Source: Patescibacteria group bacterium
Lineage (GTDB): Bacteria; Patescibacteriota; Patescibacteriia; 2-01-FULL-39-33
Length of the DNA stretch: 64,000 nucleotides
Direction: 5' to 3'
Assembly (NCBI GenBank): GCA_041650895.1
Contig: JBAZKF010000001.1
Coordinates: 145,685-209,684, forward strand
Below are positions 1-17,433 of the stretch, piece by piece; the stretch's first letter is position 1; each line of letters opens with the position of its first letter. The position numbers were made by a program, and so were the translations under genes. Below the pieces are notes generated by a model that saw only the letters and a program-made list of their open reading frames with translations, had not been told where the DNA came from and did no database searches.

Positions 1-2108
1 CGCAGTTTGACTTTGCTCCCAATCTCCGGCGGCAAGCCTTCAGCTTCTGCCGGCTCAGTGATTCTCCGAGCGACCAAACAACAGATTTCCTCAAACTCGG
101 CTTCGGTCATCTCGCCGGAGTCAACCAGCGCCTTGAGCTCGTCAAAGCTCATATACTGGCGATCGGGCAACTCAAAACGAGCATCCTCCAAAGTCAAAAC
201 CAACGAACACGAAATACTGTTAGATTCCCAACGCCAATTGTAACGTTGGATCTTCGCGCAATGCGGAGCATGGCGCACGACTATCTGCGGGTCACTGATG
301 ATCGTCGCCATAGTCAGGAGCTTCAATATCTTTGGGAGGTCGAACCGTCCTTTCACGGTGAGGTCGACCGGTTCCCCGACCACTAATTGGCCGGACGACG
401 AACTCGAGATGACCGAACGGTTGCTCAACTGCCTCTGTTCAAACCCATACATGGGATAACTTTCTCGGCCAGTGCTGACTTTGGCGCTAAGACCATCAGA
501 AACCATGTGAAGCTTGTCCAACATGCCGCTAACCACCAGCTCGGCCATTAGGTCATCGTTAATGTCGGGAGATTTGTTCTGTCCCCTGTCATCAGCCGAC
601 AGATATTGCAGTTTGCGCTCTATCTCTTGAACGCGCCGATAATGCTTCAAAGACAGTCCATGGTCAGAGAACGTCTGTGGATCCTTCCGTAAACCGTCTG
701 CGAAACAGCAATAATGATATTGCGCAACCGCGTCAGAAATCCCGACGTAAGGCGGCAACTTTATCCAGCTATCCTTGACCCGCGACTGGATTCCGCCCAC
801 CTCCCTACAAGCAACAATACGACGCATGGCCGGCAACTGGCCGACTTTCTTTGCCAACACTAATGATTTTGCTGAGTTCACAGAAACCGGCCACCGGGAT
901 ATTAATTCACCCAGCGACGACGCCGTGCCATCAGCCATTACTGCTCCCAGAATTCGCAGAGTCCGATAAGACTCGGCCATAGCAGATCTGTTCGGCTGAT
1001 GGAAGAATTCCAACTCCATCACATTAATACCATGGCAGGCCAGGCGTAGGATGAGTTGATCCAGACGAACCCGCTCAATCTCCGCCTTGGGAAAATCTTC
1101 TTGGTCCTCCCAACCGCTATAACAATTGATATATACCCCTTCCGAGTCCCTACCGGCTCGTCCCCTGCGTTGATCGACTTGAGCCTTGGAAATACGGCGT
1201 AGATAAAGCCCCTCTACGCCATCCTTGGTTTCGATGCGCTTTTCCAATTGCGTATCAAGTACCCCGTTAATTCCGGGTACTGTGACCCCGGATTCAGCTA
1301 TATTAGTGGTTACGATAATTTTCGGTTTGCCGTAATCCACAAAAACCAAATCTTGTTCCTCCGGGGGCAAGTCCCCATGGAGGGGTAGAATTACCGCATC
1401 AGTATCAACGCCCATTTGGCGCAATCGATCAATACAATCATAAACTTCCCTTTTACCGGGCTGGAACAACTTGATAGTGCGGCCCTCCTTGACTAACAGT
1501 GCCGCTTCTTCTTCAATTGACCCTGTTGTCATGGGACGATCCACTACCGGAAACAACCTGCCTTCAACGCTCAATACGGGCGCATTGTCAAAATATTCCG
1601 ACAAGCGCTCAGCTTCAAGCGTTGCTGACATAATGACCAAACGAAAATTAGCTCCTTCCTTCAGGCGCTTTTTGGCCCAGGCCACCAAGGCCTCGGTCTC
1701 CACGCCCCACTCATGGACCTCGTCAATAATCAAGACTTCCGGTTGCCAGTCAAAGACGATCTCACGAATCGACTCCGCTCCATCAGTGCTATACAGCAAT
1801 CTGGTATCTGCGGAGCAATTCCGTTCAAATCCGGTACGGTAACCAATTTCCCCGCCTAACTTGCAACCATTCTGTCGCGCCACATAACACGCGACCGAAC
1901 GAGCAAGGAAACGCCGTGGCACAGTGCATACCACTTTGAATCCGGCCCGCCAAAACATTGGCGGTATTAAGGTGGTTTTACCGGAGCCGGTCTTCGCCGT
2001 AATAATAACCACCGGGTTATCCAAAACCAACTCAGTAATCTCTGCTTCACGAGCCGCGACCGGCAGGGTTGATGGATTAACTAAAGAGATCAATATCTTA
2101 TCCTCCAT
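1..2108 (-). CDS. ATP-dependent DEAH-box helicase, HrpA/HrpB-like (C-terminus lies beyond the left edge; not in the ORF track)
   Basis: Manual minus-strand translation from ATG at 2108 (TGA in frame just upstream). It gives MEDKILISLVNPSTLPVAAREAEITELVLDNPVVIITAKTGSGKTT (Walker A), IIDEVHEW (DEAH box), IMSATLEAERL (motif III), TNIAESGVTVPGI (motif V) and QRRGRAGR (motif VI). The frame is open to position 1. Confidence 0.8.
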   Translation of the reverse strand, partial: MEDKILISLVNPSTLPVAAREAEITELVLDNPVVIITAKTGSGKTTLIPPMFWRAGFKVVCTVPRRFLARSVACYVARQNGCKLGGEIGYRTGFERNCSADTRLLYSTDGAESIREIVFDWQPEVLIIDEVHEWGVETEALVAWAKKRLKEGANFRLVIMSATLEAERLSEYFDNAPVLSVEGRLFPVVDRPMTTGSIEEEAALLVKEGRTIKLFQPGKREVYDCIDRLRQMGVDTDAVILPLHGDLPPEEQDLVFVDYGKPKIIVTTNIAESGVTVPGINGVLDTQLEKRIETKDGVEGLYLRRISKAQVDQRRGRAGRDSEGVYINCYSGWEDQEDFPKAEIERVRLDQLILRLACHGINVMELEFFHQPNRSAMAESYRTLRILGAVMADGTASSLGELISRWPVSVNSAKSLVLAKKVGQLPAMRRIVACREVGGIQSRVKDSWIKLPPYVGISDAVAQYHYCCFADGLRKDPQTFSDHGLSLKHYRRVQEIERKLQYLSADDRGQNKSPDINDDLMAELVVSGMLDKLHMVSDGLSAKVSTGRESYPMYGFEQRQLSNRSVISSSSSGQLVVGEPVDLTVKGRFDLPKILKLLTMATIISDPQIVVRHAPHCAKIQRYNWRWESNSISCSLVLTLEDARFELPDRQYMSFDELKALVDSGEMTEAEFEEICCLVARRITEPAEAEGLPPEIGSKVKL

Positions 2109-2313
2109 TAATCATGAGAGAAATTTGAGTTCTCTCCGACAATGGAGAGAACGACCGTTGGGCCGTCAAATTTTATCTCCCTACTTTAAAGTATTCAATT
2201 TTTAGGTACGCCGCTAACTTTTAAGTTGAGCGGTTAACTCTGACTTTAACCGTCTATACATCCGATTAAAAACAGGCAAAAACCGTTCAAATTAGACATA
2301 AATTCAATATGTA

Positions 2314-2342
2314 ATTATATCACACATTAATTATTTTGTCAA
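2314..2342 (-). promoter_or_regulatory. sigma70-type promoter reading toward the helicase gene (minus strand: TTGACA, 17 bp, TGATATAAT extended -10)
   Basis: Reverse complement of 2314-2342 reads TTGACAAAATAATTAATGTGTGATATAAT, with -35 at 2337-2342 and -10 at 2314-2319. This is in the AT-rich divergent intergenic region between the helicase and murA. Confidence 0.5.
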
Positions 2343-2487
2343 GATAGTTATCCACAATATAAAACATGACTTCTGGTGTATGGTTTATAATATCTAAATT
2401 TAGATAAAAAAATATGATAATTTAGCCAATATATTTGCTTTAAATGCTCAATAATGTTATTATTAAACTAATAAATACTTATTTTAT

Positions 2488-3741
2488 ATGGAAAAATACA
2501 TCATCGAAGGCGGGCATAGATTGTCCGGCGAAATTAGCGTCCCCGGCGCCAAGAATCAAGTAGGCAAAATGCTGGCCGCCAGCATCCTCTCCTCCGAACC
2601 ATGCGAGCTGACTAATGTACCGGCGATTGAAGACGTAACGCACATGCTGGAGCTTTTGGAAGATATCGGCGCCAAAATTGAACGGAGCGAAGGCCGCCTA
2701 ATAATTGATCCGTCAGGCGTCAATAAATCAGAACCGTCGGCCGAGCTGGTCAAACGTCTCAGATCTTCGGTTATGCTGGCCGGGCCGCTTCTGGCGCGCT
2801 TCGGCAAAGTGACCATGGCGCATCCCGGAGGCTGCGTCATTGGCAAACGTCCGATTGATATGTTTCTTGCCGGCTTCAAAGCTTTAGGAGCCAAAATTGA
2901 AGAAAACGAAAACCACTACACCCTACACGCCAAAAAATTAATCGGTGCTAAAATCGTCATGCCTTGGATAGCTGTTACCGCCACTGAGTCACTGATGATG
3001 ACTGCAACTTTAGCTGAAGGCGTCACGCAAATCATTAACGCGGCCATGGAACCGGAAATCCCGGCTTTGGCTGATTACCTTAATTCCTGCGGCGCCAAAA
3101 TCACCGGCGCCGGCACGCCAGTTATCACAATTGAAGGTGTAAAAAAAATCAGCGGCGGCAAATGCCAACTAATCCCCGACCGCATTGAAGCGGGAACTTT
3201 CGTCATCATGGGACTTCTGACTGGCAGTGAAATTACAATCACTAATTGCGAGCCCAAGCACTTGGACGTGGTTCTAGCCACACTGGAAAAAGCCGGAGCC
3301 AAATTGGATGTGGGAGAAAATTACATCAAAACCAAACGCAGCAAAGTAAAAGCGGTGGAATTACGCACCCATGAGTATCCGGGTTTTCCTACCGACCTGC
3401 AAGCGCCTTTTACCGTGCTTATGACTCAAGGCGAAGGATTATCTTTGATCCATGAAGTAATTTATGAAGGCCGGCTGTTTTATACCGACAAGCTTAATGC
3501 CATGGGAGCTAACATTATTATGTGCGACCCTCATCGAGTAATTGTCTCCGGGCCGACAACTTTACACGGCAAAAAACTGGAATCGCCTGACCTGCGCGCC
3601 GGTATGGCCTTAGTCTTAGCCGGCCTTGCCGCCCAAGGGAAAACTACGATTGACAATATTTATCAAGTTGAACGAGGCTATCAGGATCCGATCGGCCGCC
3701 TGCGGGCATTAGGCGCCAAAATTGAAAAAATCAAGGAGTAA
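2488..3741 (+). CDS. murA: UDP-N-acetylglucosamine 1-carboxyvinyltransferase
   Basis: 417 aa. The N-terminus MEKYIIEGGHRLSGEISVPGAKNQ...NVPAIEDV...LELLEDIGAKI matches the MurA/EPSP-synthase fold N-terminus, and the length is typical. Confidence 0.93.
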   Translation: MEKYIIEGGHRLSGEISVPGAKNQVGKMLAASILSSEPCELTNVPAIEDVTHMLELLEDIGAKIERSEGRLIIDPSGVNKSEPSAELVKRLRSSVMLAGPLLARFGKVTMAHPGGCVIGKRPIDMFLAGFKALGAKIEENENHYTLHAKKLIGAKIVMPWIAVTATESLMMTATLAEGVTQIINAAMEPEIPALADYLNSCGAKITGAGTPVITIEGVKKISGGKCQLIPDRIEAGTFVIMGLLTGSEITITNCEPKHLDVVLATLEKAGAKLDVGENYIKTKRSKVKAVELRTHEYPGFPTDLQAPFTVLMTQGEGLSLIHEVIYEGRLFYTDKLNAMGANIIMCDPHRVIVSGPTTLHGKKLESPDLRAGMALVLAGLAAQGKTTIDNIYQVERGYQDPIGRLRALGAKIEKIKE

Positions 3742-3742
3742 T

Positions 3743-5071
3743 ATGACCTTATTATATCGTCGTATAACTTACATTTCCTTCATTATAATTTTCCTGATTA
3801 TTACGCCTCTTATCATCGCCTATACGGCCGGTTATCGTTATAATTTCAGCAAAGGCCGGGTGCAAAAAACCGGCATCCTGCGCATTACTTCTATTCCTCG
3901 TGGCGCCAACATCTACCTGAATAGCCAAATACAAAACACACAGACTCCGGCCAAAATCCAATATCTGATGCCGGGTGATTACGAGATTAAACTAACCAAA
4001 GAGGGATATTTTGATTGGCAAAAAAAACTGCCGATTACAGAAAATAATACCACCTTCGCTGAAAAAATAATCCTCTGGAAAAAACCAGCGGCAAAAAAAT
4101 TAAACGCCACCACCAGCGTCTCCTCTTGGCTTATTTCACCCGATAAAAACATTATCGCCTTCAGCCAGCTGGACGGATCTATTGGTATTATTGACGTCAA
4201 TTCCGGCTTATTCGGCGAGCTATCAGGCGGTTCACTGGAAATAATCACTAAAATTTCTGATTACGGCGAAGTTAAGTTAATCAGCTACTCCCCAACCGGC
4301 CGTTATCTGATCGCTGAAAGTGGTAAAAGCAACGCTAAAACCTATTTCCTCATCGACGCTTTTTTAAAAAAATACGATAAATTGCCGATAAAAAACTATT
4401 CTGCCATTAAATGGGACAGAAACTCCGACACGCTTTATGCCAACGATAAAACAAGTTTGTGGCAAATTAATGTTTCCAACTCAACAGCCAAACAATTATT
4501 AAAAAGCTTTACCGGCGATTTTTATTTTGATAATCAAAACTTTTACATCTTTAAAAATTCCATTTTAAGCCGAGGCACTCTGACTAATGCTAATATCAGC
4601 GATATAGCAGCTATCACCTGCGATGCTTGCCGAATTGAAACGATTAAAGGCAACCGCCTGTATCTTTTTAACCGGCTCAGCGGCGACTTGCGTATTATTG
4701 ATTTATCCGGCAAAACCAAATCCGCCAGCCTGAAAGCCAAGTCTTTTGATTTTCTAGCTAATAATTCAGCTTTGATTTATAATGATTTTGAACTATCAAT
4801 TTATAACAGCGCCAAAGATGAACCAGAACTTATCACCCGGCTGGGCCAGCCTATTTCCGCCGCCGCCTGGCACCCAACCGGACGCTATATTTTCTTTGTT
4901 ACTGAAGGACAATTAAAAGTCATTGAATTGGATAACCGCGAATTGCGCAATATCATTACTATAATTGACGCCCCTGCTGATTTCATCCAATTGGATCGTG
5001 CCGGCAATAATGTTTATTTCAGCGGGTTAATAGACAAACAGGAAGGCATTTACAAACTGGACATCCAATAA
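3743..5071 (+). CDS. membrane-anchored PEGA-domain protein with C-terminal beta-propeller-like region
   Basis: Start moved to ATG 3743, preceded by AGGAG; the track start at 3722 is a TTG inside the murA end. There is an N-terminal TM helix, then a PEGA-like segment (GILRITSIPRGANIYLNSQ...PGDYEIKLTKEGYFDW), then repeated beta-strand-rich segments. Confidence 0.6.
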   Translation: MTLLYRRITYISFIIIFLIITPLIIAYTAGYRYNFSKGRVQKTGILRITSIPRGANIYLNSQIQNTQTPAKIQYLMPGDYEIKLTKEGYFDWQKKLPITENNTTFAEKIILWKKPAAKKLNATTSVSSWLISPDKNIIAFSQLDGSIGIIDVNSGLFGELSGGSLEIITKISDYGEVKLISYSPTGRYLIAESGKSNAKTYFLIDAFLKKYDKLPIKNYSAIKWDRNSDTLYANDKTSLWQINVSNSTAKQLLKSFTGDFYFDNQNFYIFKNSILSRGTLTNANISDIAAITCDACRIETIKGNRLYLFNRLSGDLRIIDLSGKTKSASLKAKSFDFLANNSALIYNDFELSIYNSAKDEPELITRLGQPISAAAWHPTGRYIFFVTEGQLKVIELDNRELRNIITIIDAPADFIQLDRAGNNVYFSGLIDKQEGIYKLDIQ

Positions 5072-5101
5072 TCCCTAAAATCATAAGGCAAATTAATAAT
5101 A

Positions 5102-5135
5102 AACCGCCACTATTGACAAATGGCGGTTTTTGAGT
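5102..5135 (+). terminator. rho-independent terminator after the PEGA-domain gene
   Basis: AACCGCCA ctattgacaaa TGGCGGTT followed by TTTTTGAG. A 7-8 bp GC-rich stem with a T-tract. Confidence 0.6.
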
Positions 5136-5136
5136 T

Positions 5137-5158
5137 ATCATAGAACAATCATAGAACT
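5137..5158 (+). repeat. tandem 11-bp direct repeat (ATCATAGAACA / ATCATAGAACT)
   Basis: Two exact 10-bp copies with one-helical-turn spacing, between the terminator and the dCMP deaminase RBS (AAGGAG at 5204-5209). Confidence 0.4.
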
Positions 5159-5218
5159 TTAAAAACAATAAAAAATTGTCTCGGTCAGTGCCTCGACCAA
5201 ACAAGAAGGAGAACCCAG

Positions 5219-5806
5219 ATGGATTCATCGCCAGAATTAGTGGAAGAAATAAAAAGATTCAGAGTGGGATTTGCTTATCTAATGGATGTTATGTATTCAT
5301 GTGCGGCGAAGAGCAATGATCCGGACACGCATATCGGAGCAGTTATAGTTCGACCCGAGTTTAATAAAACTGTTTTAACGGCCGATTTGCGTAGAAGCAT
5401 AGTTTCCACCGGCTGTAATCATTTTCCTCGCAACATAAAAATTACTCCGGCAATGCTGGAGCGCCCGGAAAAACACCTTTGGACTGTTCATGCCGAAACT
5501 GATGCTATTTGTTGCGCCGCCCGTTACGGCGGATCTTTACAGGGTTGCCACCTTTTTACCAATGGCCTGCCCTGCTCCGAATGCGCCAAAGTGATTGTTG
5601 AGAGTGGCATCGCTTCAATTTATATTGACCGAGGCTGGGAATCATTCGGTGATCCCGGTTTCCAGAAGACCTGGGCGGAAAAATTTAGGGTCAGTAGAAT
5701 CATGCTTGATGCGGCCAATATTCCGGTTATTCCTATCCCTTACCTCCATAACATCTGCAGTGAAGTACGAAGAGTGCCACGCTTCAAGCGCGGCCAATGG
5801 TTTTAA
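5219..5806 (+). CDS. dCMP/CMP deaminase (cytidine/deoxycytidylate deaminase zinc-binding family)
   Basis: HAETDAI ... PCSECAKVI gives the H(A)E ... PCxxC zinc-binding signature. AAGGAG RBS 9 nt upstream of the ATG. Confidence 0.8.
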   Translation: MDSSPELVEEIKRFRVGFAYLMDVMYSCAAKSNDPDTHIGAVIVRPEFNKTVLTADLRRSIVSTGCNHFPRNIKITPAMLERPEKHLWTVHAETDAICCAARYGGSLQGCHLFTNGLPCSECAKVIVESGIASIYIDRGWESFGDPGFQKTWAEKFRVSRIMLDAANIPVIPIPYLHNICSEVRRVPRFKRGQWF

Positions 5807-5843
5807 AAGGATCAATGATCTTAAACCGATAAAGGAAAATACC

Positions 5844-6269
5844 ATGAGAAAATTACTCTTGATAGAATTTGACAAAGAAGCCAGATCGGCGCTAGGACGA
5901 ACACTTGGCGATGCCGGCTACATCGTACACGCCAGCGATATGTCGCGAGCTGAGCTGGGAACAGCCAGGGAAGCGTTACTCGGAGATAAGTTTGACGCCA
6001 TCGTTATTGAGCCGGAAATGCCCTTGGATGAATTGGCTAAGGGCCCGGAAGCGTTGAGCGGGATAAAACTCTTAGCAAAATGGCGAGAACAAGGTCTGAC
6101 CCTGCCACCGATAGTCGCCTTGACCTGGCGCAATTACAGTTATTTTTTTGGCGACGAGAAACTATACCAACACGGCATTGGTTGCGTGGTGGATAAGATT
6201 GGCGGTTCAGATTCATTGCTTAATGCGCTTGAATGCCTGTGGGAGAAAGAAGAAGAGGAATTTGATTGA
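5844..6269 (+). CDS. stand-alone CheY-like receiver domain protein, atypical (Glu at the phospho-acceptor position)
   Basis: Start placed at ATG 5844 after AAAGGAAAAT; the longer track ORF overlaps the deaminase in another frame. LLLIEFD (beta1 acidic pair), AIVIEPEMP (position of the conserved Asp occupied by Glu), IVALTW (conserved Thr), VVDK (conserved Lys). Acidic tail EKEEEEFD. No output domain. Confidence 0.65.
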   Translation: MRKLLLIEFDKEARSALGRTLGDAGYIVHASDMSRAELGTAREALLGDKFDAIVIEPEMPLDELAKGPEALSGIKLLAKWREQGLTLPPIVALTWRNYSYFFGDEKLYQHGIGCVVDKIGGSDSLLNALECLWEKEEEEFD

Positions 6270-6275
6270 ACAAAA

Positions 6276-6310
6276 CAACGCCCCCTATTAAGGGAGCGTT
6301 TTAATTTTGC
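6276..6310. terminator. bidirectional terminator between convergent genes
   Basis: AACGCCCCCT atta AGGGAGCGTT hairpin flanked by A-rich sequence on the 5' side and TTTTAATTTT on the 3' side. It lies between the receiver gene (+) and the HIT gene (-). Confidence 0.6.
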
Positions 6311-6312
6311 CT

Positions 6313-6720
6313 TTAAGTTATTTGCGTTTTAATTTTCTCCGCTAATTCCTGTTGCCGGCCTGGTTCATATTCTTTACCCGGCCAGAGCTTGAGGCCATCA
6401 CCCTCAGACCGGGGCACAATATGAAAATGCACATGGCCGACAACCTGACCTGATGCCCCGCCATTATTAAGCATCAAATTGAAAGCATTGGTTCCGGTGG
6501 CGGATAGAACCGCCGGCGCAATCTTCTGCGCCAAACCCAAAAGCTGGCAAGCGTCATCAGCCGGCAAATCCAGCAAAGTTTCATAATGGGCCTTAGGAAT
6601 GATCAAGGTGTGACCCGGGTTGACCGGCGCAATATCCAAAAAAGCCAAAAACTTATCATCCTCATAAACTTTGGCTGAGGGGATTTCTCCGGCAATGATT
6701 TTACAAAAGATACAGTCCAT
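6313..6720 (-). CDS. HIT-family (histidine triad) nucleotide hydrolase
   Basis: HVHFHIVPR histidine-triad motif; N-terminus MDCIFCKII; about 135 aa, typical of HinT. Confidence 0.9.
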   Translation of the reverse strand: MDCIFCKIIAGEIPSAKVYEDDKFLAFLDIAPVNPGHTLIIPKAHYETLLDLPADDACQLLGLAQKIAPAVLSATGTNAFNLMLNNGGASGQVVGHVHFHIVPRSEGDGLKLWPGKEYEPGRQQELAEKIKTQIT

Positions 6721-6757
6721 ATGGTTTGATTATAAATTAAAAATAACAAGTTAATGA

Positions 6758-8620
6758 TTATTTGCTGCAAATAATATTATTAGTTGTCTCCTGAAACTCC
6801 TTGGCAGAGACAGCTTCCAAAGACAAAATTATCGGCAAAGACTCTTTGATGCATGGCCTTTCGGGCAAGTCCTTTATTTCTTGCCAGACAACTTGCGCTT
6901 TCTGCCAATCGGCATCGGTTATCACCAAGTCCATGACCGGCCCGGAATAGTAGTTGGCCACAATCAACAAGGAAAGAATAACCACGGCTAATTCCGCCTG
7001 ATGGCGCCTTTTAATAGCCGAGATGATCAACTGGCAAAACAATAAAAGCAAAGGCAGAATGGCAAAAAGCGTCAAACGACGCGCCAAGGAGTGCTCGCCC
7101 GATAAAAATCCCCAGCTAATAAAGTAAGCGCCGAGAGTGATCAGAGAAAAATAAGAGACTAAGCGCCACGCCGCGTCATTGCGTTGCCAGGCGACAATCA
7201 AGGAAACCAAATAAACTAAGATAAAAATTGTAGCCACGGCTAAATCAAAGATTTTGGGCATCAAACCCCACTGCGGCCATAACTTCAAACCGGAATTAAA
7301 ATACCATAAATTGCCGGCGGTCCAGGCCTGATATAAACCGCCTAAATGAAAACTGACTTGCCGGCTGGAAACAAAATCCAGAGCTACCAATCCTATTATC
7401 GCCAACAAAGCCACGATTGCCGACCAATCGCGTTTTCTGGCAGTCAATGTTAATAAACCAAAAATTATCAGCAAAATAAAGGCCAACGAATAATTAAAAT
7501 AATTAAGTGCCGTAAAAGCCAAGGCCAATAAGGCCATTTTATTATTCGGGCGCCTCAAATAGGCCAGCCAAAGCATGACGCCGAAAGCAAAATTGAGCAA
7601 CCCCCAACTTGCCGGCAAACCCTGTCCGCCATAATACTGCCATAAATAAAAACCGGAACTTAAAACGGCTGCCAGCAGGGCAAACTGCCGATTAGGGTAT
7701 AATAACGAAGCAATAACAAAAATAATTAACGGCAAAAATAAAGACCAAAGAAACGGTAAAAGAAAACGATTGAGCTGAAACACATCAATTGAAGTTATCT
7801 TGGAAACAACAGCCTCCAGCGACCATTGGGCGCCATAAGACAACTTGGCCGGATCCGCTAAGGCTTGCGGAACTTTTATTCCACTAACAGCAACGTACCA
7901 GACATCACCGGCCAATAATGTCGGCTGATATTCCAAACCCGATAATAAGCGGTATTCCGATCCAAGATGACGGAAACGATCACCACCAAAACCATTCGGA
8001 TAAACCAATAAATAAGAATGGATTAATAAAGAAAAAATAATAACGGAAAATAATGCCACCGCCAAAGATATGCGACTCTGCGACAAATATAGGGCAGCCA
8101 AAGAGCAGACAAAAACGATTACTAAAAACAACGGACTGAGAGTTTGCCAGGGACTGACTAATCCACTGCTATTTATACCAGCAAAAACAAAATAACCGCC
8201 GATAACAGCCAAGACCAATAGGATAGCGGCATAACCGAAATAAGCGGGCAAAAACGGCTCGCTCGAGTAACTTCCGGCGCCGCAGGCAGGCAATTTAGCA
8301 TAATAAAAATACAAAACAACAATAAAGACTAAAGAGATGATGAAAGCGGCAATAATGAAAATGTTAGAAAAAGACAACCAAGCCGTGAAAATATTAGTTA
8401 CCAACGACAAAATAGCCAAACTAAAAAAAATCCCCAACGCCATGGCCAATTGCCTATTGACGGGCAGGATTCTCAAAAGGACTCTACCTGCGAAGTAAGT
8501 TGAGATAAATAACCAGACAAAGGATAAAATAAGATAGAGAATCATAAATAACAAATCATAAATATCAAATACCGAATAATTCTTTGGCATTTTTGGTTGT
8601 GGCTTCGGCCACTTCGCCAT
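6758..8620 (-). CDS. large polytopic membrane protein, unknown function (possibly a GT-C-like glycosyltransferase)
   Basis: 620 aa and overwhelmingly hydrophobic, with at least 12 predicted TM segments. AAAGGA RBS before the ATG at 8620. No recognisable catalytic motif. Confidence 0.5.
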   Translation of the reverse strand: MAKWPKPQPKMPKNYSVFDIYDLLFMILYLILSFVWLFISTYFAGRVLLRILPVNRQLAMALGIFFSLAILSLVTNIFTAWLSFSNIFIIAAFIISLVFIVVLYFYYAKLPACGAGSYSSEPFLPAYFGYAAILLVLAVIGGYFVFAGINSSGLVSPWQTLSPLFLVIVFVCSLAALYLSQSRISLAVALFSVIIFSLLIHSYLLVYPNGFGGDRFRHLGSEYRLLSGLEYQPTLLAGDVWYVAVSGIKVPQALADPAKLSYGAQWSLEAVVSKITSIDVFQLNRFLLPFLWSLFLPLIIFVIASLLYPNRQFALLAAVLSSGFYLWQYYGGQGLPASWGLLNFAFGVMLWLAYLRRPNNKMALLALAFTALNYFNYSLAFILLIIFGLLTLTARKRDWSAIVALLAIIGLVALDFVSSRQVSFHLGGLYQAWTAGNLWYFNSGLKLWPQWGLMPKIFDLAVATIFILVYLVSLIVAWQRNDAAWRLVSYFSLITLGAYFISWGFLSGEHSLARRLTLFAILPLLLLFCQLIISAIKRRHQAELAVVILSLLIVANYYSGPVMDLVITDADWQKAQVVWQEIKDLPERPCIKESLPIILSLEAVSAKEFQETTNNIICSK

Positions 8621-9440
8621 AAGTCAGATCCTTTAGTTGTGCAACTTTTTTAGCCACAAATTCCACGTATTGCGGAACATTCCTGGCTCCGCGGTGCGGC
8701 TCCGGAGACAGGAAGGGCGCATCGGTTTCAATCAAAATCCTATCAAGCGGCGTCTCCCGAACTATCTGTTGGAGTTCTTCGGATTTTTTCTTGAATGTTA
8801 TAATGCCGGTAAAACCCAAATATAAACCGAGTCGCAAAAATTGCTTGGCTTGTTCGGCATTACCGCCAAAGCAATGCACTACTCCTTTGACTTTCCTATC
8901 GGAGCCAATCTTGTCTTGTAAAATGCGCAAAATATCATCATAGGCATCAGTCGGGTTAGCAACAGAGCCTCGGCTGTGGATAACCAAGGGCAGATTAAGT
9001 TCTTCAGCCAAAGCGATAAAACCACGGAAGGCCTGCTCTTGTTTAATCTTCAATTGCGCGATCTCCGCAACAGAAAATTTACCGAAATAAAAATAATCCA
9101 ATCCGGTTTCGCCGACAGCCACGACTTTCTTGGATGATCGGGCTAACTGGCGGTATTTATTAGCATCAAAATCCTCTTGCGCGGTCTTAAAAGTCTGCGG
9201 TTTGCCTTCAATAATAATAGTTTCTTCCCCCGCTTCAATTAAATGAAGCGGGTGCAATCCGACTACGGCATAAACCCCGCGCGGAAATTTTTCCGCCAAA
9301 TTAATCGCCCGTTCGGAAGTGGAATATTGCGCGCCCACATTCAATAAGGCGTAATTAGACGATAAAAAATCAGCCGCCACTTTAGTGGCGTCATCTCTAA
9401 AGGAAATGAAGTTTAGATGGCAATGAGAGTCTACCAACAT
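8565..9440 (-). CDS. TatD-family metal-dependent hydrolase/DNase
   Basis: N-terminus MLVDSHCHLNF with HxH metal ligands, and the TIM-barrel TatD length (291 aa). Confidence 0.9.
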   Translation of the reverse strand: MLVDSHCHLNFISFRDDATKVAADFLSSNYALLNVGAQYSTSERAINLAEKFPRGVYAVVGLHPLHLIEAGEETIIIEGKPQTFKTAQEDFDANKYRQLARSSKKVVAVGETGLDYFYFGKFSVAEIAQLKIKQEQAFRGFIALAEELNLPLVIHSRGSVANPTDAYDDILRILQDKIGSDRKVKGVVHCFGGNAEQAKQFLRLGLYLGFTGIITFKKKSEELQQIVRETPLDRILIETDAPFLSPEPHRGARNVPQYVEFVAKKVAQLKDLTYGEVAEATTKNAKELFGI

Positions 9441-9443
9441 ACA

Positions 9444-9968
9444 TTAAAATATTGACTGTATTCTATTAAACGCCTCGGGCAAAAGCTTAGTCAGCCAAGT
9501 GGCCGACAAAACCAGCCAATAAGCTATCTGGGAATTGCCCAAAAAATTCTTAACTAAAGAAATATCTGGAGCAATTTTGGCTAAAACGAATATTATAATG
9601 CCGGAAGTCAAAACACCTTCCACTAACCCCAATAGCGCGCCGCCCAGCCGATTCAAAGAACCCAAAAAAGGAATAATGGAAATCAACTTAAAGCCACGAT
9701 CAACCAGATAAAATAATAAAACCGTCAAACGGTTTACTGCAATAAAAACAAATAAGAAGGCAACGATTCTAGCGGCGATAGCATGGCCCATCAGCACCGG
9801 CGTCAGCCAATCGGCTACCGGCATAAAATAATGGCCGGCCACCCAAGTGCCAAAGATCATGCCGACCAAAGCGCCAATCGTGCGTATCAGTCCCATAACA
9901 AAGCCCCACATCACGAAAATTAAAACAATAATAATCAAAATGACGTCGACAAGCGTAAAAACCATCAT
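9444..9968 (-). CDS. CvpA-family membrane protein
   Basis: 174 aa with four TM helices starting MMVFTLVDVILIIIVLIFVMWGFVMG, typical of CvpA. Confidence 0.7.
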   Translation of the reverse strand: MMVFTLVDVILIIIVLIFVMWGFVMGLIRTIGALVGMIFGTWVAGHYFMPVADWLTPVLMGHAIAARIVAFLFVFIAVNRLTVLLFYLVDRGFKLISIIPFLGSLNRLGGALLGLVEGVLTSGIIIFVLAKIAPDISLVKNFLGNSQIAYWLVLSATWLTKLLPEAFNRIQSIF

Positions 9969-9993
9969 ATAGATAGCTTATGATTAATATTTA

Positions 9994-11490
9994 CTATATC
10001 CTGGGGAATAAGCCAGTGATCTTCTCTACTTTACTCTGGGGCTCCAAAAGACCCCAAACAGTCAAGGTTTTATAATCTTGGCCAAAAAAGCCTGCTTGAC
10101 CCAAGGCGGTCATAATCCTTTCTCCACTTTCCGGCATAATCGGCCAAAGCAAGACACCGACATGACGCAATAACTCCAGTAAGTTATAGATTACTTCTTC
10201 TAATCTTTTAACATCGGTCTTAGCCAGTTCCCAAGGCTTATTTTTTTCCACATAAGCGTCACCCAAAGCGACTAAGCCCTTAACCGCTTCAATGCCGTTA
10301 TCAGGCAGGAAATCACTCATAGCTTGATTATATTGCCCGATGAGCTTTTCAGTTTCCGCTTTCAATTCGTTATCGCGATTCGGCACTAAACCAGCAAAAT
10401 ATTTTTCGGCCATGGCCGTAACGCGGGAAGAAAAATTACCGATACCATTGGCCAAATCTGAATTATACTGAATAACAAACTTATCCGCCTTGATATCTCC
10501 GTCCTGTCCGAACGGAAATTGCGACAGCAACAAATACCTGATAGCGTCAACGCCAAATCCTTTAGCTAATTCTAAGGGGTCAATAATATTACCCAAAGAT
10601 TTGCCCATCTTATGCCCGTCAACCGTAAAGAAACCATGGGCAAAAATAGTCATGGGGGGTTGGATTTCCGCGGCCAATAGCATGGCCGGCCAAAAAATAC
10701 AATGAAACTTAATAATGTCCTTGCCGATAACGTGTACATCAGCCGGCCAAAACTTATCCAGCTTAGCTTCGTCGCCGGAACCATAACCCAAAGCATTAAT
10801 ATAATTACTTAGAGCATCGGCCCAAACATAAGTAACTTGTGTCGGATCCCAAGGCAAAGGTATGCCCCATTTGAGATTTTGACGAGAAATGGAAAAATCA
10901 GACAACTCCTGTTTGAATAAGCCCAGCACTTCTTTCTTTTTGCTGGCAGGCAGGATCCTAATTTTATCCGTATCAATTAATCGCTCTACTTCCGGCAAAT
11001 ACTTCTTCAAATTGAAAAAGTAATTCTTTTCTTCAATAAGCTCCGGCTTGGTTTGGTGCACCGGACATAAACCGCCGACCAAATCCTTTTCTGTCACAAA
11101 AGCCTCACAACCCTTACAATAATAACCCTCATACTTGCCCTCGTAAATCGCTTCGGCCTCTTTTAACCTTAACAGCAGTTTAGTGACGCCATCCTTGTGG
11201 CGGTCGGAAGTAGTGCGAATAAAATCATCATTAGAAATATTAAGCGCGTCCCAAGCGAATTGCCATTTAGCCGCCATAGCGTCGCAGAATTCCTGCGGCG
11301 ATGCATTAGCGGCCGCAGCCGAATCTGACATTTTCTGGCCATGCTCATCCACACCGGTTAGATAGTAAACTTCATCGCCGAGTAAACGATGATAACGTGC
11401 CAGAACATCAGCAGCGATTGTCGGATAAGCCGAGCCGATATGCGGTTCGGCGTTAGAATAATAAATTGGGGTGGTTATGTAAAACTTCAT
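9994..11490 (-). CDS. metG: methionine--tRNA ligase (short form)
   Basis: HIGS-type motif (PIYYSNAEPHIGSAY) and KMGKS (KMSKS motif). 498 aa, so it lacks the C-terminal tRNA-binding extension. Confidence 0.93.
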   Translation of the reverse strand: MKFYITTPIYYSNAEPHIGSAYPTIAADVLARYHRLLGDEVYYLTGVDEHGQKMSDSAAAANASPQEFCDAMAAKWQFAWDALNISNDDFIRTTSDRHKDGVTKLLLRLKEAEAIYEGKYEGYYCKGCEAFVTEKDLVGGLCPVHQTKPELIEEKNYFFNLKKYLPEVERLIDTDKIRILPASKKKEVLGLFKQELSDFSISRQNLKWGIPLPWDPTQVTYVWADALSNYINALGYGSGDEAKLDKFWPADVHVIGKDIIKFHCIFWPAMLLAAEIQPPMTIFAHGFFTVDGHKMGKSLGNIIDPLELAKGFGVDAIRYLLLSQFPFGQDGDIKADKFVIQYNSDLANGIGNFSSRVTAMAEKYFAGLVPNRDNELKAETEKLIGQYNQAMSDFLPDNGIEAVKGLVALGDAYVEKNKPWELAKTDVKRLEEVIYNLLELLRHVGVLLWPIMPESGERIMTALGQAGFFGQDYKTLTVWGLLEPQSKVEKITGLFPRI

Positions 11491-11554
11491 AAATTAATAT
11501 TTATTTCTTCCATTTTTATAATTCGTAGTTCGTAATTATTGATTCATAATTGGC

Positions 11555-12241
11555 CTACTTTCCTTCCACTACCACAACAAACTCGCCTTTGGTAGTATCG
11601 GACTTTAATTGATCTAAAATTTGCTTGATATTGCCGCGATAAACGGTTTCAAATTTCTTCGTCAGTTCGCGACCCACAACGATTCGCCTGCCATTATCCG
11701 CCCCGGGGGGCATCATCTCGTTTAACTTTTCCAAAGATTTGATAATCCGATGAGTAGATTCATAAAACACTGTCGTCTCTCCACTGTCAATTATTCTTTT
11801 CAGTATTGTCTCCTTGCCTTTCTTATGAGGCAAAAAGCCCAAGAACAGAAAACGATCGGTCGGCAAGCCGGAAATAGACAAAAGGGCGACAATAGCTGAC
11901 GGACCGGGAATAGGGATAATCTCGCACTGACTGCCAAATCTTTTGACTGCCGCTTCCACCAACAAATTGCCCGGATCGGAAATTCCCGGAGTCCCTGCGT
12001 CAGTAATAACCGCCATCTCCCCCGTCTCGGCCAGCTTATCCAACAAAAAATCCACCTTGCCGGCTGAGCTATGCTGGTGATAGGAAACTGTTTTGGTTTT
12101 GATATCGTAAGCCGCTAAAAGCTTGCTGGAAACACGCGTGTCTTCGCAAGCAATCAAAGGCACGGACTTGAGTACCTCCAAAGCCCGGAGAGTTATATCT
12201 TTTAAATTTCCCAGCGGCGTCGCGACAATATAGAGTTTCAT
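11555..12241 (-). CDS. rsmI: 16S rRNA (cytidine1402-2'-O)-methyltransferase
   Basis: MKLYIVATPLGNLKDITLRALEVLKSVPLIACEDTR is the tetrapyrrole-methylase-fold RsmI N-terminus. Confidence 0.88.
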   Translation of the reverse strand: MKLYIVATPLGNLKDITLRALEVLKSVPLIACEDTRVSSKLLAAYDIKTKTVSYHQHSSAGKVDFLLDKLAETGEMAVITDAGTPGISDPGNLLVEAAVKRFGSQCEIIPIPGPSAIVALLSISGLPTDRFLFLGFLPHKKGKETILKRIIDSGETTVFYESTHRIIKSLEKLNEMMPPGADNGRRIVVGRELTKKFETVYRGNIKQILDQLKSDTTKGEFVVVVEGK

Positions 12242-12283
12242 AAAAAAACTATACCATTTTTAAGCAAAAAAAGCAACTTTAAT

Positions 12284-12321
12284 TATAAAACCCGCACGAC
12301 GATATGGCGTACGGGTTTTTA
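12284..12321 (-). terminator. putative rho-independent terminator downstream of the 12347..13270 gene
   Basis: CCCG(C/T)ACG stem with one mismatch, flanked by A- and T-tracts. Confidence 0.4.
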
Positions 12322-12346
12322 ACTTTTCAATAACTGTAATACCTGT

Positions 12347-13270
12347 TTATTTGGTGGTTGCCGTAGTCTGGGTTGTGGCCGAACCGGAAGCCTTAGTCGC
12401 ATCCGCTTTCACCTCTGTACCGGTCGTCAGATCCTTATAATCTCCCATCAGATCTAAATTAGTGAAGATATAAGTACCGTCATCAGCGACAATTCCCACA
12501 TCCGCCCAAGCCTGAGTGAACACCAGGTACTCGCTGACTTCTCCGCTGATTAATATTGTCGGCGCTTTGGTTATCTTGTACTTCTCAACCAAATCTTTGC
12601 CGGCAGGCGAAGAAATATCTACAGTTTTAGCTCGGTTAGTCGGCACGCCTAAGTTTTCCAAAGCCGTTGCATGAGTCTTGACATCATAACAAGTCTTGCA
12701 AGATTCATCAGTCAAATAAGTAACCAATATTTCTCCTTTGAGTTTATTTAAAGCCAAGTCATAATACGGCGCTAAAATTTTGGTCAAGACAAATTGATTA
12801 TCAACAGTATTACCCAAAGTGCTGGTGAAAAAAGCAGCTAAATCAGGATTTTTGCTAAAATCTGTTTCTACTACGACAGTCGGGACTTTGGTTACTTGTA
12901 ACTTCTTAGCTAACGCCTTGCCTTTACTCCAGGGCCACCAACCATCAACCTTGAGGGTTTCCACATCGGTGATTTTGATGCTTCTGCTTTTTAAAGCGTC
13001 AATAAATAAGCTAGTATCCCAGCATTTATTACCACAATGCGTAGAAGTTAAAACAATCACTTTGGCTTCAGCAATAGGATTAGCCGGTTGGGAATCGTCT
13101 TTCTTTCCGTCCCACACGCCGGATAGCCACAAGACCAACACCAAAATAACAATAATGACTAAAGCAATGGCCAAACCGATTATCAAACCGCGCTTGAAAT
13201 TGCTTTGCCCTTCGCGTTTAGCGCAAACATTCTTGCACCAGTCAGAAATTTTAGAAATAATTTTCTTCAT
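12347..13270 (-). CDS. membrane-anchored protein with two thioredoxin/glutaredoxin-like domains
   Basis: Start placed at MKKIISK, 30 nt after the lutB-like stop. One TM helix, then two segments with Cys pairs (HCGNKC and SCKTC) in thioredoxin-fold-like context, then a Thr/Ser-rich tail. Confidence 0.45.
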   Translation of the reverse strand: MKKIISKISDWCKNVCAKREGQSNFKRGLIIGLAIALVIIVILVLVLWLSGVWDGKKDDSQPANPIAEAKVIVLTSTHCGNKCWDTSLFIDALKSRSIKITDVETLKVDGWWPWSKGKALAKKLQVTKVPTVVVETDFSKNPDLAAFFTSTLGNTVDNQFVLTKILAPYYDLALNKLKGEILVTYLTDESCKTCYDVKTHATALENLGVPTNRAKTVDISSPAGKDLVEKYKITKAPTILISGEVSEYLVFTQAWADVGIVADDGTYIFTNLDLMGDYKDLTTGTEVKADATKASGSATTQTTATTK

Positions 13271-13302
13271 ATTTTTTAACGATAAATATATAATCTGATT
13301 AA

Positions 13303-14454
13303 TTAACAGCAAAATAGCTCATCTGGTGTAGCACCTTCTGGGACTTCGCCGAAAGGATTGCCGTAGTGCTTTAAGTTTTTAAGCATTTTGGCATTAACCT
13401 CGCTAATCTTGCCTTCGGCGGTAAATTTCTCGCGATAAACTCTGGTAATATTCTGCCAATCAATCTTGGCCGGACAGTTGACTGTGCAATTCTGGCACAG
13501 AGTGCAAGTAGAATTAGTTTTATTGTTTGAGACCTTGGGCATGGTCAAAGTCAGATTCCAAGCCGGGCAAAGGTTATAACAAGCTCCACAATGGATACAG
13601 TATAACATACTTTCCAACTCGGTGCCAACTTTTTTATAGGATTGCCCTTCAATCAGAATTACCGCCAAATCCTGAGCTCCTTGCACACCGGTAATTAACT
13701 CGTTTTCAATATCGGCTGTTTGCGACGGTCCGCCAATAAACGACACGTAAGACGTCCAACTCTGACCGGTCCCCCAAACCGCAGCCGCCTTGGCAATTTT
13801 AATCGCGTCGTCATACGAGGCCACGACTTTTTCCACGTTAGCCACAGCAATATGCAGCTTGGGCAAACGAGTGATCAGAGAAATATTGCCTTCGTTCTCA
13901 AGTAGCATGATTTGCCCGTCGGCGGTAACGGCGTTAACGCCGGTCAACCCCACTTCGGCGGATAAGATCTTCTCCCTGATAACAGTTTTCAATTTATTCA
14001 CTAATTCTTTAGGGTTAGCCGGCAAATCAATCCCTTTCTGTTTGAATCTCGCAACGATTTCTTCCACCCGTAAATCAATAGCCGGCAAAACCGGATGATC
14101 GCTGTCACCGCCGATTTGCGAGACAATATAAGCACCCAAATCGGTCTCTGTCAATTTATCGCCCAGGATTTCTTTTAAACTTAATTTATCCAAAGTGTTG
14201 GACTTGCTTTTGACTGCCTGGCTTGAGCCGACTAACTCTTTAATTAATGCGGTAGCGGCAATATTGTCCTTGACCACATAAACCTTAGCGCCGGCTTGCT
14301 CTAATTTGTTCTTGGCCTTTTCTACTAATTCTGCCAGCCTGGCTGCTGCATTTTTTTTCAAATCAAAAATCTGATCGCGCAGCTTCTCCTGATCTTCACG
14401 GCTTAAGGCGGTATCTCGCTTGCTAAGATAATTGTAAACAAAATCGCGATTCAT
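13303..14454 (-). CDS. LutB/LldF-like Fe-S protein (LUD domain plus 2x 4Fe-4S ferredoxin motifs)
   Basis: CIHCGACYNLCP and CTLCQNCTVNCP ferredoxin-type Cys clusters at the C-terminus. It sits downstream of the LutA-like gene. Confidence 0.7.
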   Translation of the reverse strand: MNRDFVYNYLSKRDTALSREDQEKLRDQIFDLKKNAAARLAELVEKAKNKLEQAGAKVYVVKDNIAATALIKELVGSSQAVKSKSNTLDKLSLKEILGDKLTETDLGAYIVSQIGGDSDHPVLPAIDLRVEEIVARFKQKGIDLPANPKELVNKLKTVIREKILSAEVGLTGVNAVTADGQIMLLENEGNISLITRLPKLHIAVANVEKVVASYDDAIKIAKAAAVWGTGQSWTSYVSFIGGPSQTADIENELITGVQGAQDLAVILIEGQSYKKVGTELESMLYCIHCGACYNLCPAWNLTLTMPKVSNNKTNSTCTLCQNCTVNCPAKIDWQNITRVYREKFTAEGKISEVNAKMLKNLKHYGNPFGEVPEGATPDELFCC

Positions 14455-14456
14455 AA

Positions 14457-15194: not shown

Positions 15195-15219
15195 AATTTT
15201 AACTGGCAATTATGTAAAT

Positions 15220-15248
15220 ATCTTATCAAAAATATGTTAATTTGGCAA
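15220..15248 (-). promoter_or_regulatory. putative promoter for the lutA-lutB-like operon (TTGCCA, 17 bp, TAAGAT)
   Basis: Reverse complement reads TTGCCAAATTAACATATTTTTGATAAGAT, ending about 25 nt upstream of ATG 15194. Confidence 0.3.
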
Positions 15249-15304
15249 TTTGGCCCTGTAAATTATGAAGTTAAAACCATCCGGCTGGAATTAACAAATT
15301 ATCA

Positions 15305-15343
15305 TCAAAATAAAAGCCGCGCGACAACATACGTCATCGCACG
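15305..15343 (-). terminator. rho-independent terminator after the 15410..16100 gene
   Basis: Minus-strand CCGTGCGA (12-nt loop) TCGCGCGG is an 8-bp stem with one G-U, followed by CTTTTATTTTGA. Confidence 0.5.
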
Positions 15344-15409
15344 GAAAATTCAAGGGATTAAGGTTCAGGGATCCAGGGAGCCAAGGATCCAAGGTGTCAG
15401 ATTGTCTAC

Positions 15410-16100: not shown

Positions 16101-16177
16101 GTCTTTCTCCCATGCTGCGGCTTACCTCCTACTAGAGAACTATTCTCCAGCCTAAGGCCTACCAATGTACTGCACAC

Positions 16178-16206
16178 ATTATCTCACAATATTAATATTT
16201 TGTCAA
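16178..16206 (-). promoter_or_regulatory. sigma70-type promoter (TTGACA, 17 bp, TGAGATAAT) driving the 15410..16100 gene
   Basis: Reverse complement reads TTGACAAAATATTAATATTGTGAGATAAT. It is a near-copy of the promoter module at 2314-2342, including the upstream TGGATAA(A/C)TATC. Confidence 0.5.
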
Positions 16207-17402: not shown

Positions 17403-17433
17403 AGTTTTGTTTGGTGGTATTAGGGGAAAAAGG

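Follow-up and report, generated by a model that had tools for sequence, protein, structure and literature searches.

A putative operator-promoter module ahead of unrelated genes in a subgroup of Buchananbacteria

Two genes within a 64-kb stretch of DNA from the Candidatus Buchananbacteria group (the window, 64,000 nucleotides, whose numbering is used below) are preceded on the minus strand by look-alike promoters. By its conservation in related genomes, each of these is one copy of a module of ~95 bp that is specific to a Buchananbacteria subgroup, that is found ahead of several unrelated genes, and that is neither a recent duplication nor generic AT-rich sequence. We consider it rather likely (a probability of roughly 60%) that selection maintains it as an operator-promoter module and that the genes behind it are co-regulated. 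In the direction of transcription the composite would be ordered as follows: a T-run with the dyad ATCTAAATTTAGATA, a linker of 9–35 bp, the box (T/A)GTGGATAA(A), 5 variable bp, the -35 hexamer with its conserved continuation (TTGACAAAAT), 10 bp, and the extended -10 element TGATATAAT. In many copies the latter is followed by the initial transcribed sequence TATATATTG. Bacteria of the Candidate Phyla Radiation (CPR) are uncultivated and have genomes of ~1 Mb with very few regulators, and to our knowledge almost nothing is known of their transcriptional regulation.

A preliminary description of this DNA had reported two similar promoter modules on the minus strand, and both are present at the coordinates that it gave. 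Site 1 (minus strand 2355 to 2314) reads GTGGATAACTATCTTGACAAAATAATTAATGTGTGATATAAT and site 2 (minus strand 16219 to 16178) reads GTGGATAAATATCTTGACAAAATATTAATATTGTGAGATAAT. The two can be aligned gap-free (2314–2355 with 16178–16219) as GTGGATAA-N5-TTGACA-N14-TGnTATAAT, and a repeat search of the whole window returned them as an ungapped 42-nt pair with 83% identity (pair D19). The indels in the consensus proposed earlier are not needed, since both spacers are 17 bp long and all 12 instances of the module now available align ungapped. Most of the other repeats listed in the same search are within a paralogous gene array at 29–64 kb, and one of them (D20) is another pair of similar promoter regions.

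At site 1 the box (2348–2356; minus strand TGTGGATAA, plus strand TTATCCACA; approximately -50 to -42) is separated by a fixed 5 bp from an exact TTGACA (2337–2342), next to which stands the conserved AAAAT, and after a spacer of 17 bp follows the extended -10 element TGATATAAT (2314–2322, with TG at 2321–2322 and TATAAT at 2314–2319). Site 2 has its box at 16212–16220 (minus strand AGTGGATAA, plus strand TTATCCACT) in the same register, 5 bp from an exact TTGACA (16201–16206), and, likewise after 17 bp, the extended -10 element TGAGATAAT (16178–16186, with GATAAT at 16178–16183), which in the orthologous promoter of locus L069 is kept as CGTGAGATAAT. Scored against TTGACA-17-TATAAT, site 1 reaches 12/12 and site 2 11/12, with TG upstream in both, and a consensus scan ranked them as the two best sigma-70-type matches within positions 1–20000. 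The consensus -35, 17-bp spacer and extended -10 noted before are thus borne out. Indeed, hexamers, spacer, TGn, orientation and location in non-coding DNA all agree at both sites with a sigma-70-type promoter having an extended -10, and by these features both sites are near-consensus promoters of this kind, placed correctly ahead of genes: site 1 is ~200 nt upstream of the helicase ATG at 2108, and site 2 is ~72 nt upstream of the ATG at 16099. Site 1 lies in a 379-bp divergent region between murA (2488, plus strand) and the helicase gene. Site 2 is flanked upstream by a gene for an SfLAP/DsbD-like membrane protein, which has a terminator-like end, and downstream by an open reading frame for 229 amino acids. 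The genes of this genome are tightly packed, with few intergenic regions, and its closest relatives carry the annotation Buchananbacteria or "Patescibacteria group".

A chance resemblance of two AT-rich strong promoters is effectively refuted. Both sites are intergenic and AT-rich, a setting in which hexamers resembling those of promoters are frequent, and the same scan found 51 promoter-like sites versus 38 expected in shuffled sequence. However, the pattern TGGATAANTATCTTGACA has exactly two matches in the 64 kb searched (2337–2354 and 16201–16218), whereas for its 17 specified bases only 0.24 matches would be expected by chance even with 3 mismatches allowed, and at least 6 other genomes show this architecture again at orthologous loci. 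Nor does the module represent the generic promoter of this organism, as far as its promoters can be recognised by sequence. The other recognisable promoters in the window have an extended -10 element (TGGTATAAT, TGTTATAAT, TGGTATAGT) with a weak -35 and no box, and the strong rplJ promoter, consisting of TTGACA and the near-extended -10 GCTATAAT, likewise has no box and, in the genome of the window, no dyad either. Generic AT-rich promoter sequence is on these grounds excluded as the source of the similarity.

The comparison with other genomes (~280 kb of related DNA were examined) is based on 12 complete instances: sites 1 and 2 and those at loci L071, L072, L069, L067, L066, L074, L073b, L005, L013, and L015. 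Nine of these were not found by a pattern search, those outside the window having been reached via the downstream proteins. It should be noted that L005, L013, L015 and all metagenome matches were found with a pattern that forces the core, so that their cores carry no evidence of conservation. Three orthologues of the helicase (P0028–P0030; 72%, 72%, and 64% identity) are encoded in the same order of murA, helicase and rplJ-rplL genes, and the module is located ahead of the helicase gene in L071 (at 9745) and L072 (at 9747), the copy in L073 being cut by the end of the contig. The module is equally present ahead of the orthologues of the site-2 gene in L069 (9875) and L067 (9876), where the Zip-SfLAP synteny is conserved, and ahead of paralogues of this gene in L066 (798; from the window's own sample and genome) and L074 (9846; the genome of L069). 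An extra copy in L073 (2514) precedes an unrelated membrane-protein reading frame of 636 amino acids. When TGGATAANTATCTTGACAAA was looked for in a set with a single genome for each species, 18 loci were obtained, three of which (L005, L013, and L015) are in Buchananbacteria, each ahead of a different unrelated gene; the remaining 15 match by chance or within coding sequence, five of them in one conserved Brocadia gene. The three Buchananbacteria loci also share the G before TGGATAA, the AAAAT after the -35, TGnTATAAT at 17-bp spacing and, upstream of the box, the dyad TCTAAATTTAGA. The genes served by the module are thus the helicase, the site-2 family and four further unrelated genes (L073b, L005, L013, L015), the proteins downstream of L005 and L013 being unrelated to the site-2 protein. 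In the relatives there is about one module per 20–30 kb, and a profile search of 605 kb of DNA revealed no further strong copies. The core-forcing pattern had 42 matches in metagenomes, about half of which are in coding sequence or due to chance, while ~10 are promoter-like and ahead of diverse genes (twice greA). Four matches on viral contigs, one of them a phage-like early promoter (28% GC) and three the same sequence ending a reading frame of ~160 codons, are uninformative.

All 12 instances are aligned without gaps, with the box at a fixed 5 bp from the -35 hexamer and in constant orientation to the gene. Among the nine instances not found by pattern, TTGACAAAAT (the -35 hexamer with AAAAT) and TGATATAAT are nearly invariant, and GTGGATAA is kept in about eight, for example in L071, L072, L069, L066, and L074. 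Degraded boxes are present in two instances, ATAGATAA in L067 and GTTGATAA in L073b. The extended consensus of the box is TGTGGATAAA. By contrast, the 5 bp between box and -35 vary (CTATC, ATATC, ACCTA, ATGCA, ACCCC, ATCTA, AGGTA, GTATC), and the TATC that had been counted as part of the shared element is therefore a variable spacer. A palindrome GATA-N2-TATC, including a CRP/FNR-like class II site, was considered and rejected, because TATC is not conserved in the orthologues and the central bases are never palindromic. Motifs of Fur, CtsR, IHF, MraZ, and H-NS-like proteins were compared by eye, and none fits. A divergent overlapping promoter (TTGTCA on the other strand) would be plausible at site 1 only and not at the other copies.

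That the similarity extends past the hexamers, as was proposed before, is now evident from box, register and dyad, which are conserved at orthologous and paralogous promoters of other genomes. By this conservation box, register and dyad appear to be under selection. Box and dyad are separable from the promoter itself, because distant relatives keep the promoter without either: both in L075 (a member of the site-2 family, 34% identity) and in L076 (helicase, 41% identity) TTGACAA and an extended -10 are found, but box and dyad are absent. Within the box GTGG is conserved although the surrounding DNA has a GC content of only 25–35%, which suggests base-specific recognition.

Also to be considered is that there is no dedicated regulator and that box and dyad are strength elements, which act in an UP-like manner by direct contact with RNA polymerase (sigma region 4 or alpha-CTD) or determine the curvature of the DNA and which are inherited at very strong constitutive promoters. 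We regard this as unlikely, even though several observations are in its favor. Box and dyad always accompany the strongest promoters (perfect TTGACA, 17-bp spacer, TGn), the box stands where a proximal UP subsite would be, the dyad, an A3T3 tract behind a T-run, is prone to curvature, the strong rplJ promoter has a half-dyad ahead of it in L071 and L072, and the promoter of tuf, a highly expressed gene, also has a box. UP elements, however, are A/T tracts with the consensus AAAWWTWTTTT / AAAAAARNR between -59 and -38, whereas positions -50 to -42, approximately, are here taken up by (T/A)GTGGATAA with invariant G residues, GTGG being the invariant part, and no conservation is seen in the linker further upstream. 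The designation "UP-like" in the preliminary description is therefore not tenable for this block, which contains G within a region of 25–35% GC and is not an A/T tract. In addition, the strong rplJ promoter of the window's genome manages without box and dyad, relatives have equally good hexamers in the absence of both, and the box at the tuf promoter in L015 has a different register (10 bp from the -35). Boxes in other registers are found not only at tuf but also upstream of mraZ in L072, where they form an inverted pair, and this is the behavior expected of a transcription-factor site. True MraZ-type GTGGT repeats are also located upstream of mraZ in L072. A dedicated protein-binding element together with co-regulation, which the preliminary description had considered, is consequently the best reading of the conserved box, register and dyad and of a promoter that is not generic.

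The other proposal made at that time, a duplicated promoter cassette, would explain the similarity by common descent rather than by selection, the cause being a recent duplication, gene conversion or a mobile cassette (MITE-like, with an outward promoter). There are some indications of such events. TATC, which varies elsewhere, is common to both window copies and is the one hint of homogenisation within the genome, REP-like repeats (CGCGGGAATGAC) are near some copies, and in the paralogue family of the site-2 gene the duplications evidently included the promoter and leader along with the gene. Nevertheless, each window copy is closer to its own orthologous promoters than to the other window copy. 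Thus, site 1 shares AATTAATGT(A/G)TGATATAAT followed by TATATATTGAATTTATGT with the helicase promoters of L071 and L072, and site 2 shares ATTAATAT(T/C)GTGAGATAAT with L069; GTGAGATAAT is kept in L069 and TGATATAAT in both L071 and L072. The two lineages of the module therefore predate the divergence of these genomes, and their common sequence has been kept since then; a recent event is not supported. Moreover, the copies are at syntenic positions, their conservation is patchy, alternating between conserved blocks and freely diverging linkers, the aligned flanks showed neither target-site duplications nor terminal repeats, and the 64 kb contain only the two copies, the flanks of which cannot be aligned with each other. 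We therefore hold common descent through a recent or mobile copy to be quite improbable as the explanation.

The module is larger than reported and reaches upstream to a dyad at 2391–2406 for site 1 and 16242–16255 for site 2. At site 1 (upstream element 2391–2413, minus strand) a T-run (2407–2413) is followed by a perfect 16-bp dyad, TATCTAAATTTAGATA (2391–2406), which ends 35 bp upstream of the box. At site 2 (16242–16262, minus strand) a T-run is followed by the degenerate dyad TTCAAAATTAGATA (16242–16255), which ends at a distance of 22 bp from the box; here the preceding gene has a terminator-like hairpin, and its tail is also the T-run. In the L069 orthologue the corresponding element is GTTTAAAATTAGGTA behind a clear terminator. 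Across the copies the T-run and ATCTAAATTTAGATA are 9–35 bp upstream of the box, and the same dyad adjoins the core in L005, L013, L071, L072, L066, and L074. The exact 12-mer dyad was found only beside the core among the 65 loci examined. Nearly all occurrences of the strict motif in ~225 kb of Buchananbacteria DNA adjoin the core, and even the relaxed motif TAAAWTTAGRT is nearly confined to core-adjacent sites, the one exception being ahead of the rplJ promoter in L072. The sequence between dyad and box is unalignable and 9–35 bp long, and the distance from the dyad centre to the box ranges from 17 to 43 bp, so that strict helical phasing is absent. Probably the dyad either serves a dimeric protein as a second binding site or introduces a bend.

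Which protein could bind to the box? The TGGATAA had been recognised before as the core of a DnaA box on the opposite strand. This identification is correct: TTATCCACA is exactly present on the plus strand at 2348–2356, site 1 thus matching the DnaA-box consensus in 9/9 positions, while the box of site 2 (TTATCCACT) matches in 8/9, the core is conserved in the orthologues, and perfect DnaA 9-mers are found in 7 of the 12 instances. DnaA is universal and would be the most economical candidate, because the box is its consensus 9-mer. We nevertheless name it only tentatively and with considerable doubt. Against DnaA are the single box per promoter, the two degraded boxes and the lack of a replication theme among the downstream genes. 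Each module has only one 8-mer, and no convincing second box was found nearby, whereas sites bound by DnaA typically have closely spaced clusters; pairs or clusters of boxes are usual at DnaA-regulated promoters, with a preference for closely spaced pairs (PMC11317965). Among the loci examined there was no dnaA gene or oriC, and no candidate gene for another regulator was found near any of the copies.

For E. coli it has been proposed that scattered high-affinity DnaA boxes titrate DnaA (PMC12371093). In analogy, the GTGGATAA boxes might be titration or housekeeping boxes, or sites of a chromosome-structuring protein, that are tolerated near promoters and have no role in transcription, and the perfect 9-mer at site 1 would be in line with this. 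We consider this very improbable, since a fixed 5-bp register in 12/12 instances and a constant orientation would not be expected of pure titration sites. Furthermore, half of the TTATCCAC 8-mers are in the small intergenic fraction of the Buchananbacteria DNA examined, and most of those are within modules.

The gene behind site 1 (1–2108, minus strand; ATG at 2108) encodes an HrpA-like DEAD/DEAH helicase and runs off the window; the full protein, in L001, has 739 amino acids. Pfam and PADLOC revealed nothing informative for the downstream proteins except helicase domains and weak Cas3-like matches. It had been stated that the promoter drives the helicase gene. The promoter is indeed ahead of this gene, but the statement is imprecise, since ~200 nt of a conserved and structured leader separate it from the start of the gene. 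The predicted 5' leader (2109–2310, minus strand, ~200 nt, with a transcription start inferred at ~2307–2310) contains the motif GTACCTAAAAA at 2199–2209 and is 84% identical across four genomes, which is above the identity of the proteins. For this leader RNAalifold predicted 60 pairs, 5 of which show compensatory changes; the tip of a hairpin is variable in length, with a 14-nt insertion in two genomes, and the terminal hairpin covaries in L073. A small open reading frame of 17 codons at the start of the leader was dismissed, as it is not conserved and has a stop in L071.

The gene behind site 2 (15410–16099, minus strand) was thought to be an isolated hypothetical gene. It has a promoter ahead of it, as was said, but by comparison with its homologues and with L069 it belongs to a Buchananbacteria-specific family of variable proteins of diversity-generating retroelements (DGRs). 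The protein of 229 amino acids has no match in Pfam; almost all of its 26 homologues belong to Buchananbacteria or to unclassified Patescibacteria, and a single weak match is in Colwellbacteria. In L069 two paralogues are followed by genes for bAvd and a reverse transcriptase (RVT_1), and there are two variable repeats (10548–10674 and 11220–11346) at the 3' ends of the paralogues and a template repeat (11632–11758), which differ almost only at template adenines. Adenine-specific repeats beside reverse transcriptase and Avd genes, as characteristic of a DGR variable-protein family, are thus found for the members in L069. In the 64-kb window no gene for a reverse transcriptase or Avd was detected. 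An orthologue of the reverse transcriptase (P0152) is encoded on the 957,791-bp contig from which the window is taken, and a partial template repeat in the 2.3-kb fragment with P0152 gave no alignment to the 3' end of the site-2 gene. The predicted 5' leader of the site-2 gene (16100–16173, minus strand, ~72 nt) has a conserved two-tier hairpin before the ribosome-binding site, which in this family comprises 17 pairs, compensatory changes being seen in 8 of them. Rfam gave no match to either leader or to any of the key loci, even at E ≤ 1. The motif G(C/T)ACCTAA(A/C)AA is common to the leaders of the helicase genes and of the variable-protein paralogues, and in its form with a C as fifth base it is absent from the rest of the 283 kb of related DNA, which modestly strengthens the case for joint control. 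The helicase and the four other genes behind the module are unrelated to the variable-protein family.

How could the proposed operator-promoter module work? Judging from the consensus, the -35 hexamer and the extended -10 would be read by RNA polymerase with the housekeeping sigma factor, and transcription would start at ~2307–2310 and at 16171–16173. That the leaders are conserved directly from behind the -10 elements lends no more than indirect support to these starts. The GTGGATAA box at about -50 to -42 would be the operator, because its register to the -35 and its orientation are fixed, and a protein bound there would touch or occlude RNA polymerase. The dyad at about -65 to -95, the distance of which to the box is flexible, could be a second site for a dimeric protein or could provide a bend. 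Such a shared operator would place the helicase, the paralogues of the DGR variable protein, small membrane proteins and hypothetical proteins under common control. For the direction of regulation we can offer only a guess; a near-consensus promoter needs no activator.

DnaA is known to act as activator or repressor at promoters such as those of dnaA and nrdAB; in the case of nrdAB, activation comes from high-affinity boxes at the promoter through which RNA polymerase is stabilised, and repression from high DnaA-ATP (PMC8203912). If DnaA were the protein at the box, it could likewise activate at low and repress at high occupancy, as at nrdAB of E. coli, and the genes of the module would be coupled to the replication status. 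More speculative still, and in our opinion of low probability, is a compact regulon of the subgroup in which DnaA, as global transcription factor, couples the DGR variable proteins and the HrpA-like helicase to replication or the cell cycle. The helicase could then be an unrecognised functional partner of the DGR, because promoter module and leader RNA motif are shared with the variable-protein genes.

The module offers a concrete handle on regulation in CPR bacteria, since it can be recognised and scanned for genome-wide to define the regulon. It also marks promoters that are strong and consensus-like enough to be tried as expression parts, and the link between helicase and DGR variable proteins is a testable hint as to how DGR targets are expressed. 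A literature search for this module and for promoter motifs of Patescibacteria yielded no description. A transcription-factor site attached to a promoter is an ordinary class of element, here in a poorly studied phylum, and not a new kind of system.

When compared with known systems, the family of the site-2 gene resembles the DGR target genes of the Candidate Phyla Radiation with respect to the variable and template repeats, bAvd and reverse transcriptase in L069. This likeness, however, concerns the gene behind the promoter rather than the promoter, and the copy in the window is without reverse transcriptase or Avd within 64 kb. With rRNA-type promoters having UP elements and an extended -10 the module has in common the upstream sequence from -40 to -60 and beyond, the TGn and the occurrence at the strongest promoters; it differs in that the conserved block is GTGGATAA rather than an A/T tract and in that this block is absent from the rplJ promoter. 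In its layout the module would act as promoters do that have a proximal operator and an auxiliary site upstream. Repressor-controlled promoters such as lac (O1/O3) and phage early promoters likewise combine a very strong core with flanking site-like blocks and a second dyad tens of bp upstream, but in the module dyad and box are not phased, the proximal element is asymmetric, and no cognate regulator gene was found. Closest among specific analogues is a promoter under DnaA-box control such as nrdAB. The module differs from these promoters (nrdAB and dnaA of E. coli, sda and dnaA-dnaN of B. subtilis) in having a single box, an added AT-rich dyad and a near-consensus promoter, and its helicase, DGR and small membrane-protein genes are without a known link to replication. 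It agrees with them in that the consensus TTATCCACA adjoins or overlaps a sigma-70 promoter, and the position of the nrdAB box relative to the -35 is similar to that in the module.

The helicase gene (window 1–2108), the GC content of which is 51–52% as compared with ~38–44% across most of the window, is preceded by a 5′ leader of ~200 nt (window 2109–2310, minus strand) that is also found before the orthologous HrpA-like helicase genes of other Buchananbacteria (L071, 9786–10009; L072, 9788–10009; L073, 27–249). Across the four genomes the leader is 84% identical, whereas the helicase proteins are only 64–72% identical. Structure prediction on these four genomes yields 60 pairs, of which 5 are compensatory, together with a hairpin tip that varies in length; a search of the leader against Rfam gave no match. 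The leader is a candidate for a new cis-regulatory RNA of the HrpA-like helicase.

The gene behind the second module copy (window 15410–16099, minus strand), which the preliminary description listed as hypothetical, is a member of the variable-protein family of diversity-generating retroelements. In the orthologue locus L069 (10001–13218) the variable repeats of two paralogues match a template repeat at 11632–11758, which adjoins bAvd and a reverse transcriptase gene, and the mismatches of the variable repeats are adenine-specific. Near the copy in the window neither a reverse transcriptase nor an Avd gene is found; the reverse transcriptase of this genome (P0152) is sited elsewhere, in L077. 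This family has a conserved leader of its own, present in the window at 16100–16173 (minus strand), in the orthologue loci L069 and L067 at ~9912–10004, in the paralogues of the window's genome (L066, 838–950) and of the L069 genome (L074, 9886–10003 and 16906–17030), and in a more distant member (L075, 9914–10004). Directly 5′ of the ribosome-binding site it has a conserved two-tier hairpin of 17 pairs, 8 of which show compensatory changes. An Rfam search with this leader likewise returned no match.

Helicase leaders and leaders of variable-protein paralogues have in common the motif G(C/T)ACCTAA(A/C)AA, which lies at 2199–2209 (minus strand) in the window, at 9904 in L071, 9905 in L072 and 130 in L073, and at 9926 and 16952 in L074. 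In that form it does not occur again in 283 kb of related DNA. The motif may be a control site at the RNA level that is shared by the two leader types.

Immediately 3′ of the helicase terminator lies a separate strong promoter for rplJ, TTGACA-17-GCTATAAT, with a highly conserved leader of ~150 nt (promoter/leader region: L001, the locus with the full-length helicase of the window's genome, 7200–7400, minus strand; L071, 12221–12540; L072, 12236–12530; L073, 5867–6070). This leader, which was not called by Rfam at the gathering threshold, is probably an analogue of the L10 leader. A half-dyad (TAAAATTAGAT or similar) precedes the promoter in L071 and L072 and is absent in the window's genome.

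In L015, a locus found by the module pattern scan, a copy of the module and a membrane ORF of 70 aa are followed 3′ by ~1.5 kb (5477–7030) without any ORF of more than 90 aa and with a GC content that by eye is above that of the surroundings. This region, which matches no Rfam family and resembles none of the other loci compared, may correspond to a large non-coding RNA or to a gene that has degraded. Several intergenic regions of Buchananbacteria (L067, 9498–9750; L071, 12480–12530; L015, 5060–5090) share a REP/MITE-like repeat that includes CGCGGGAATGAC, in many cases within a short hairpin; the repeat is sometimes present as tandem duplicates with units of ~100 nt, and some copies are located immediately 5′ of module copies. 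The window itself carries at 29255–63990 an extended gene array in which almost every gene is on the minus strand and paralogous repeats are numerous (repeat pairs D1–D5).

Outside the module, two further promoter regions resemble each other (window 19210–19252 and 41083–41125; 74% over 43 nt); they read TTGATT-N17-TATAATTAAA(A)ACAC on the minus strand and sit 5′ of a SIMPL-domain gene and of gene 39562–41058. In two unrelated metagenome contigs with GC contents of 30% and 51%, greA is preceded by the identical 19-mer GTGGATAAnTATCTTGACA (L043, 9890; L028, 907–925), and in L043 TCTAAATTTA is found 25 nt upstream of it. In the tuf promoter of L015 (4150–4190, minus strand), TTGATT-17-TGGTATAAT, the −35 element is preceded at a distance of 10 bp by a perfect TGTGGATAA box, a register that differs from that of the module. 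In L072 (20188–20380), 5′ of mraZ, DnaA-box 8-mers form an inverted pair (GTGGATAAG, 32 nt, GTTATCCAC), and ~100 nt beyond it the promoter is flanked by four GTGGT repeats, which resemble an MraZ operator.
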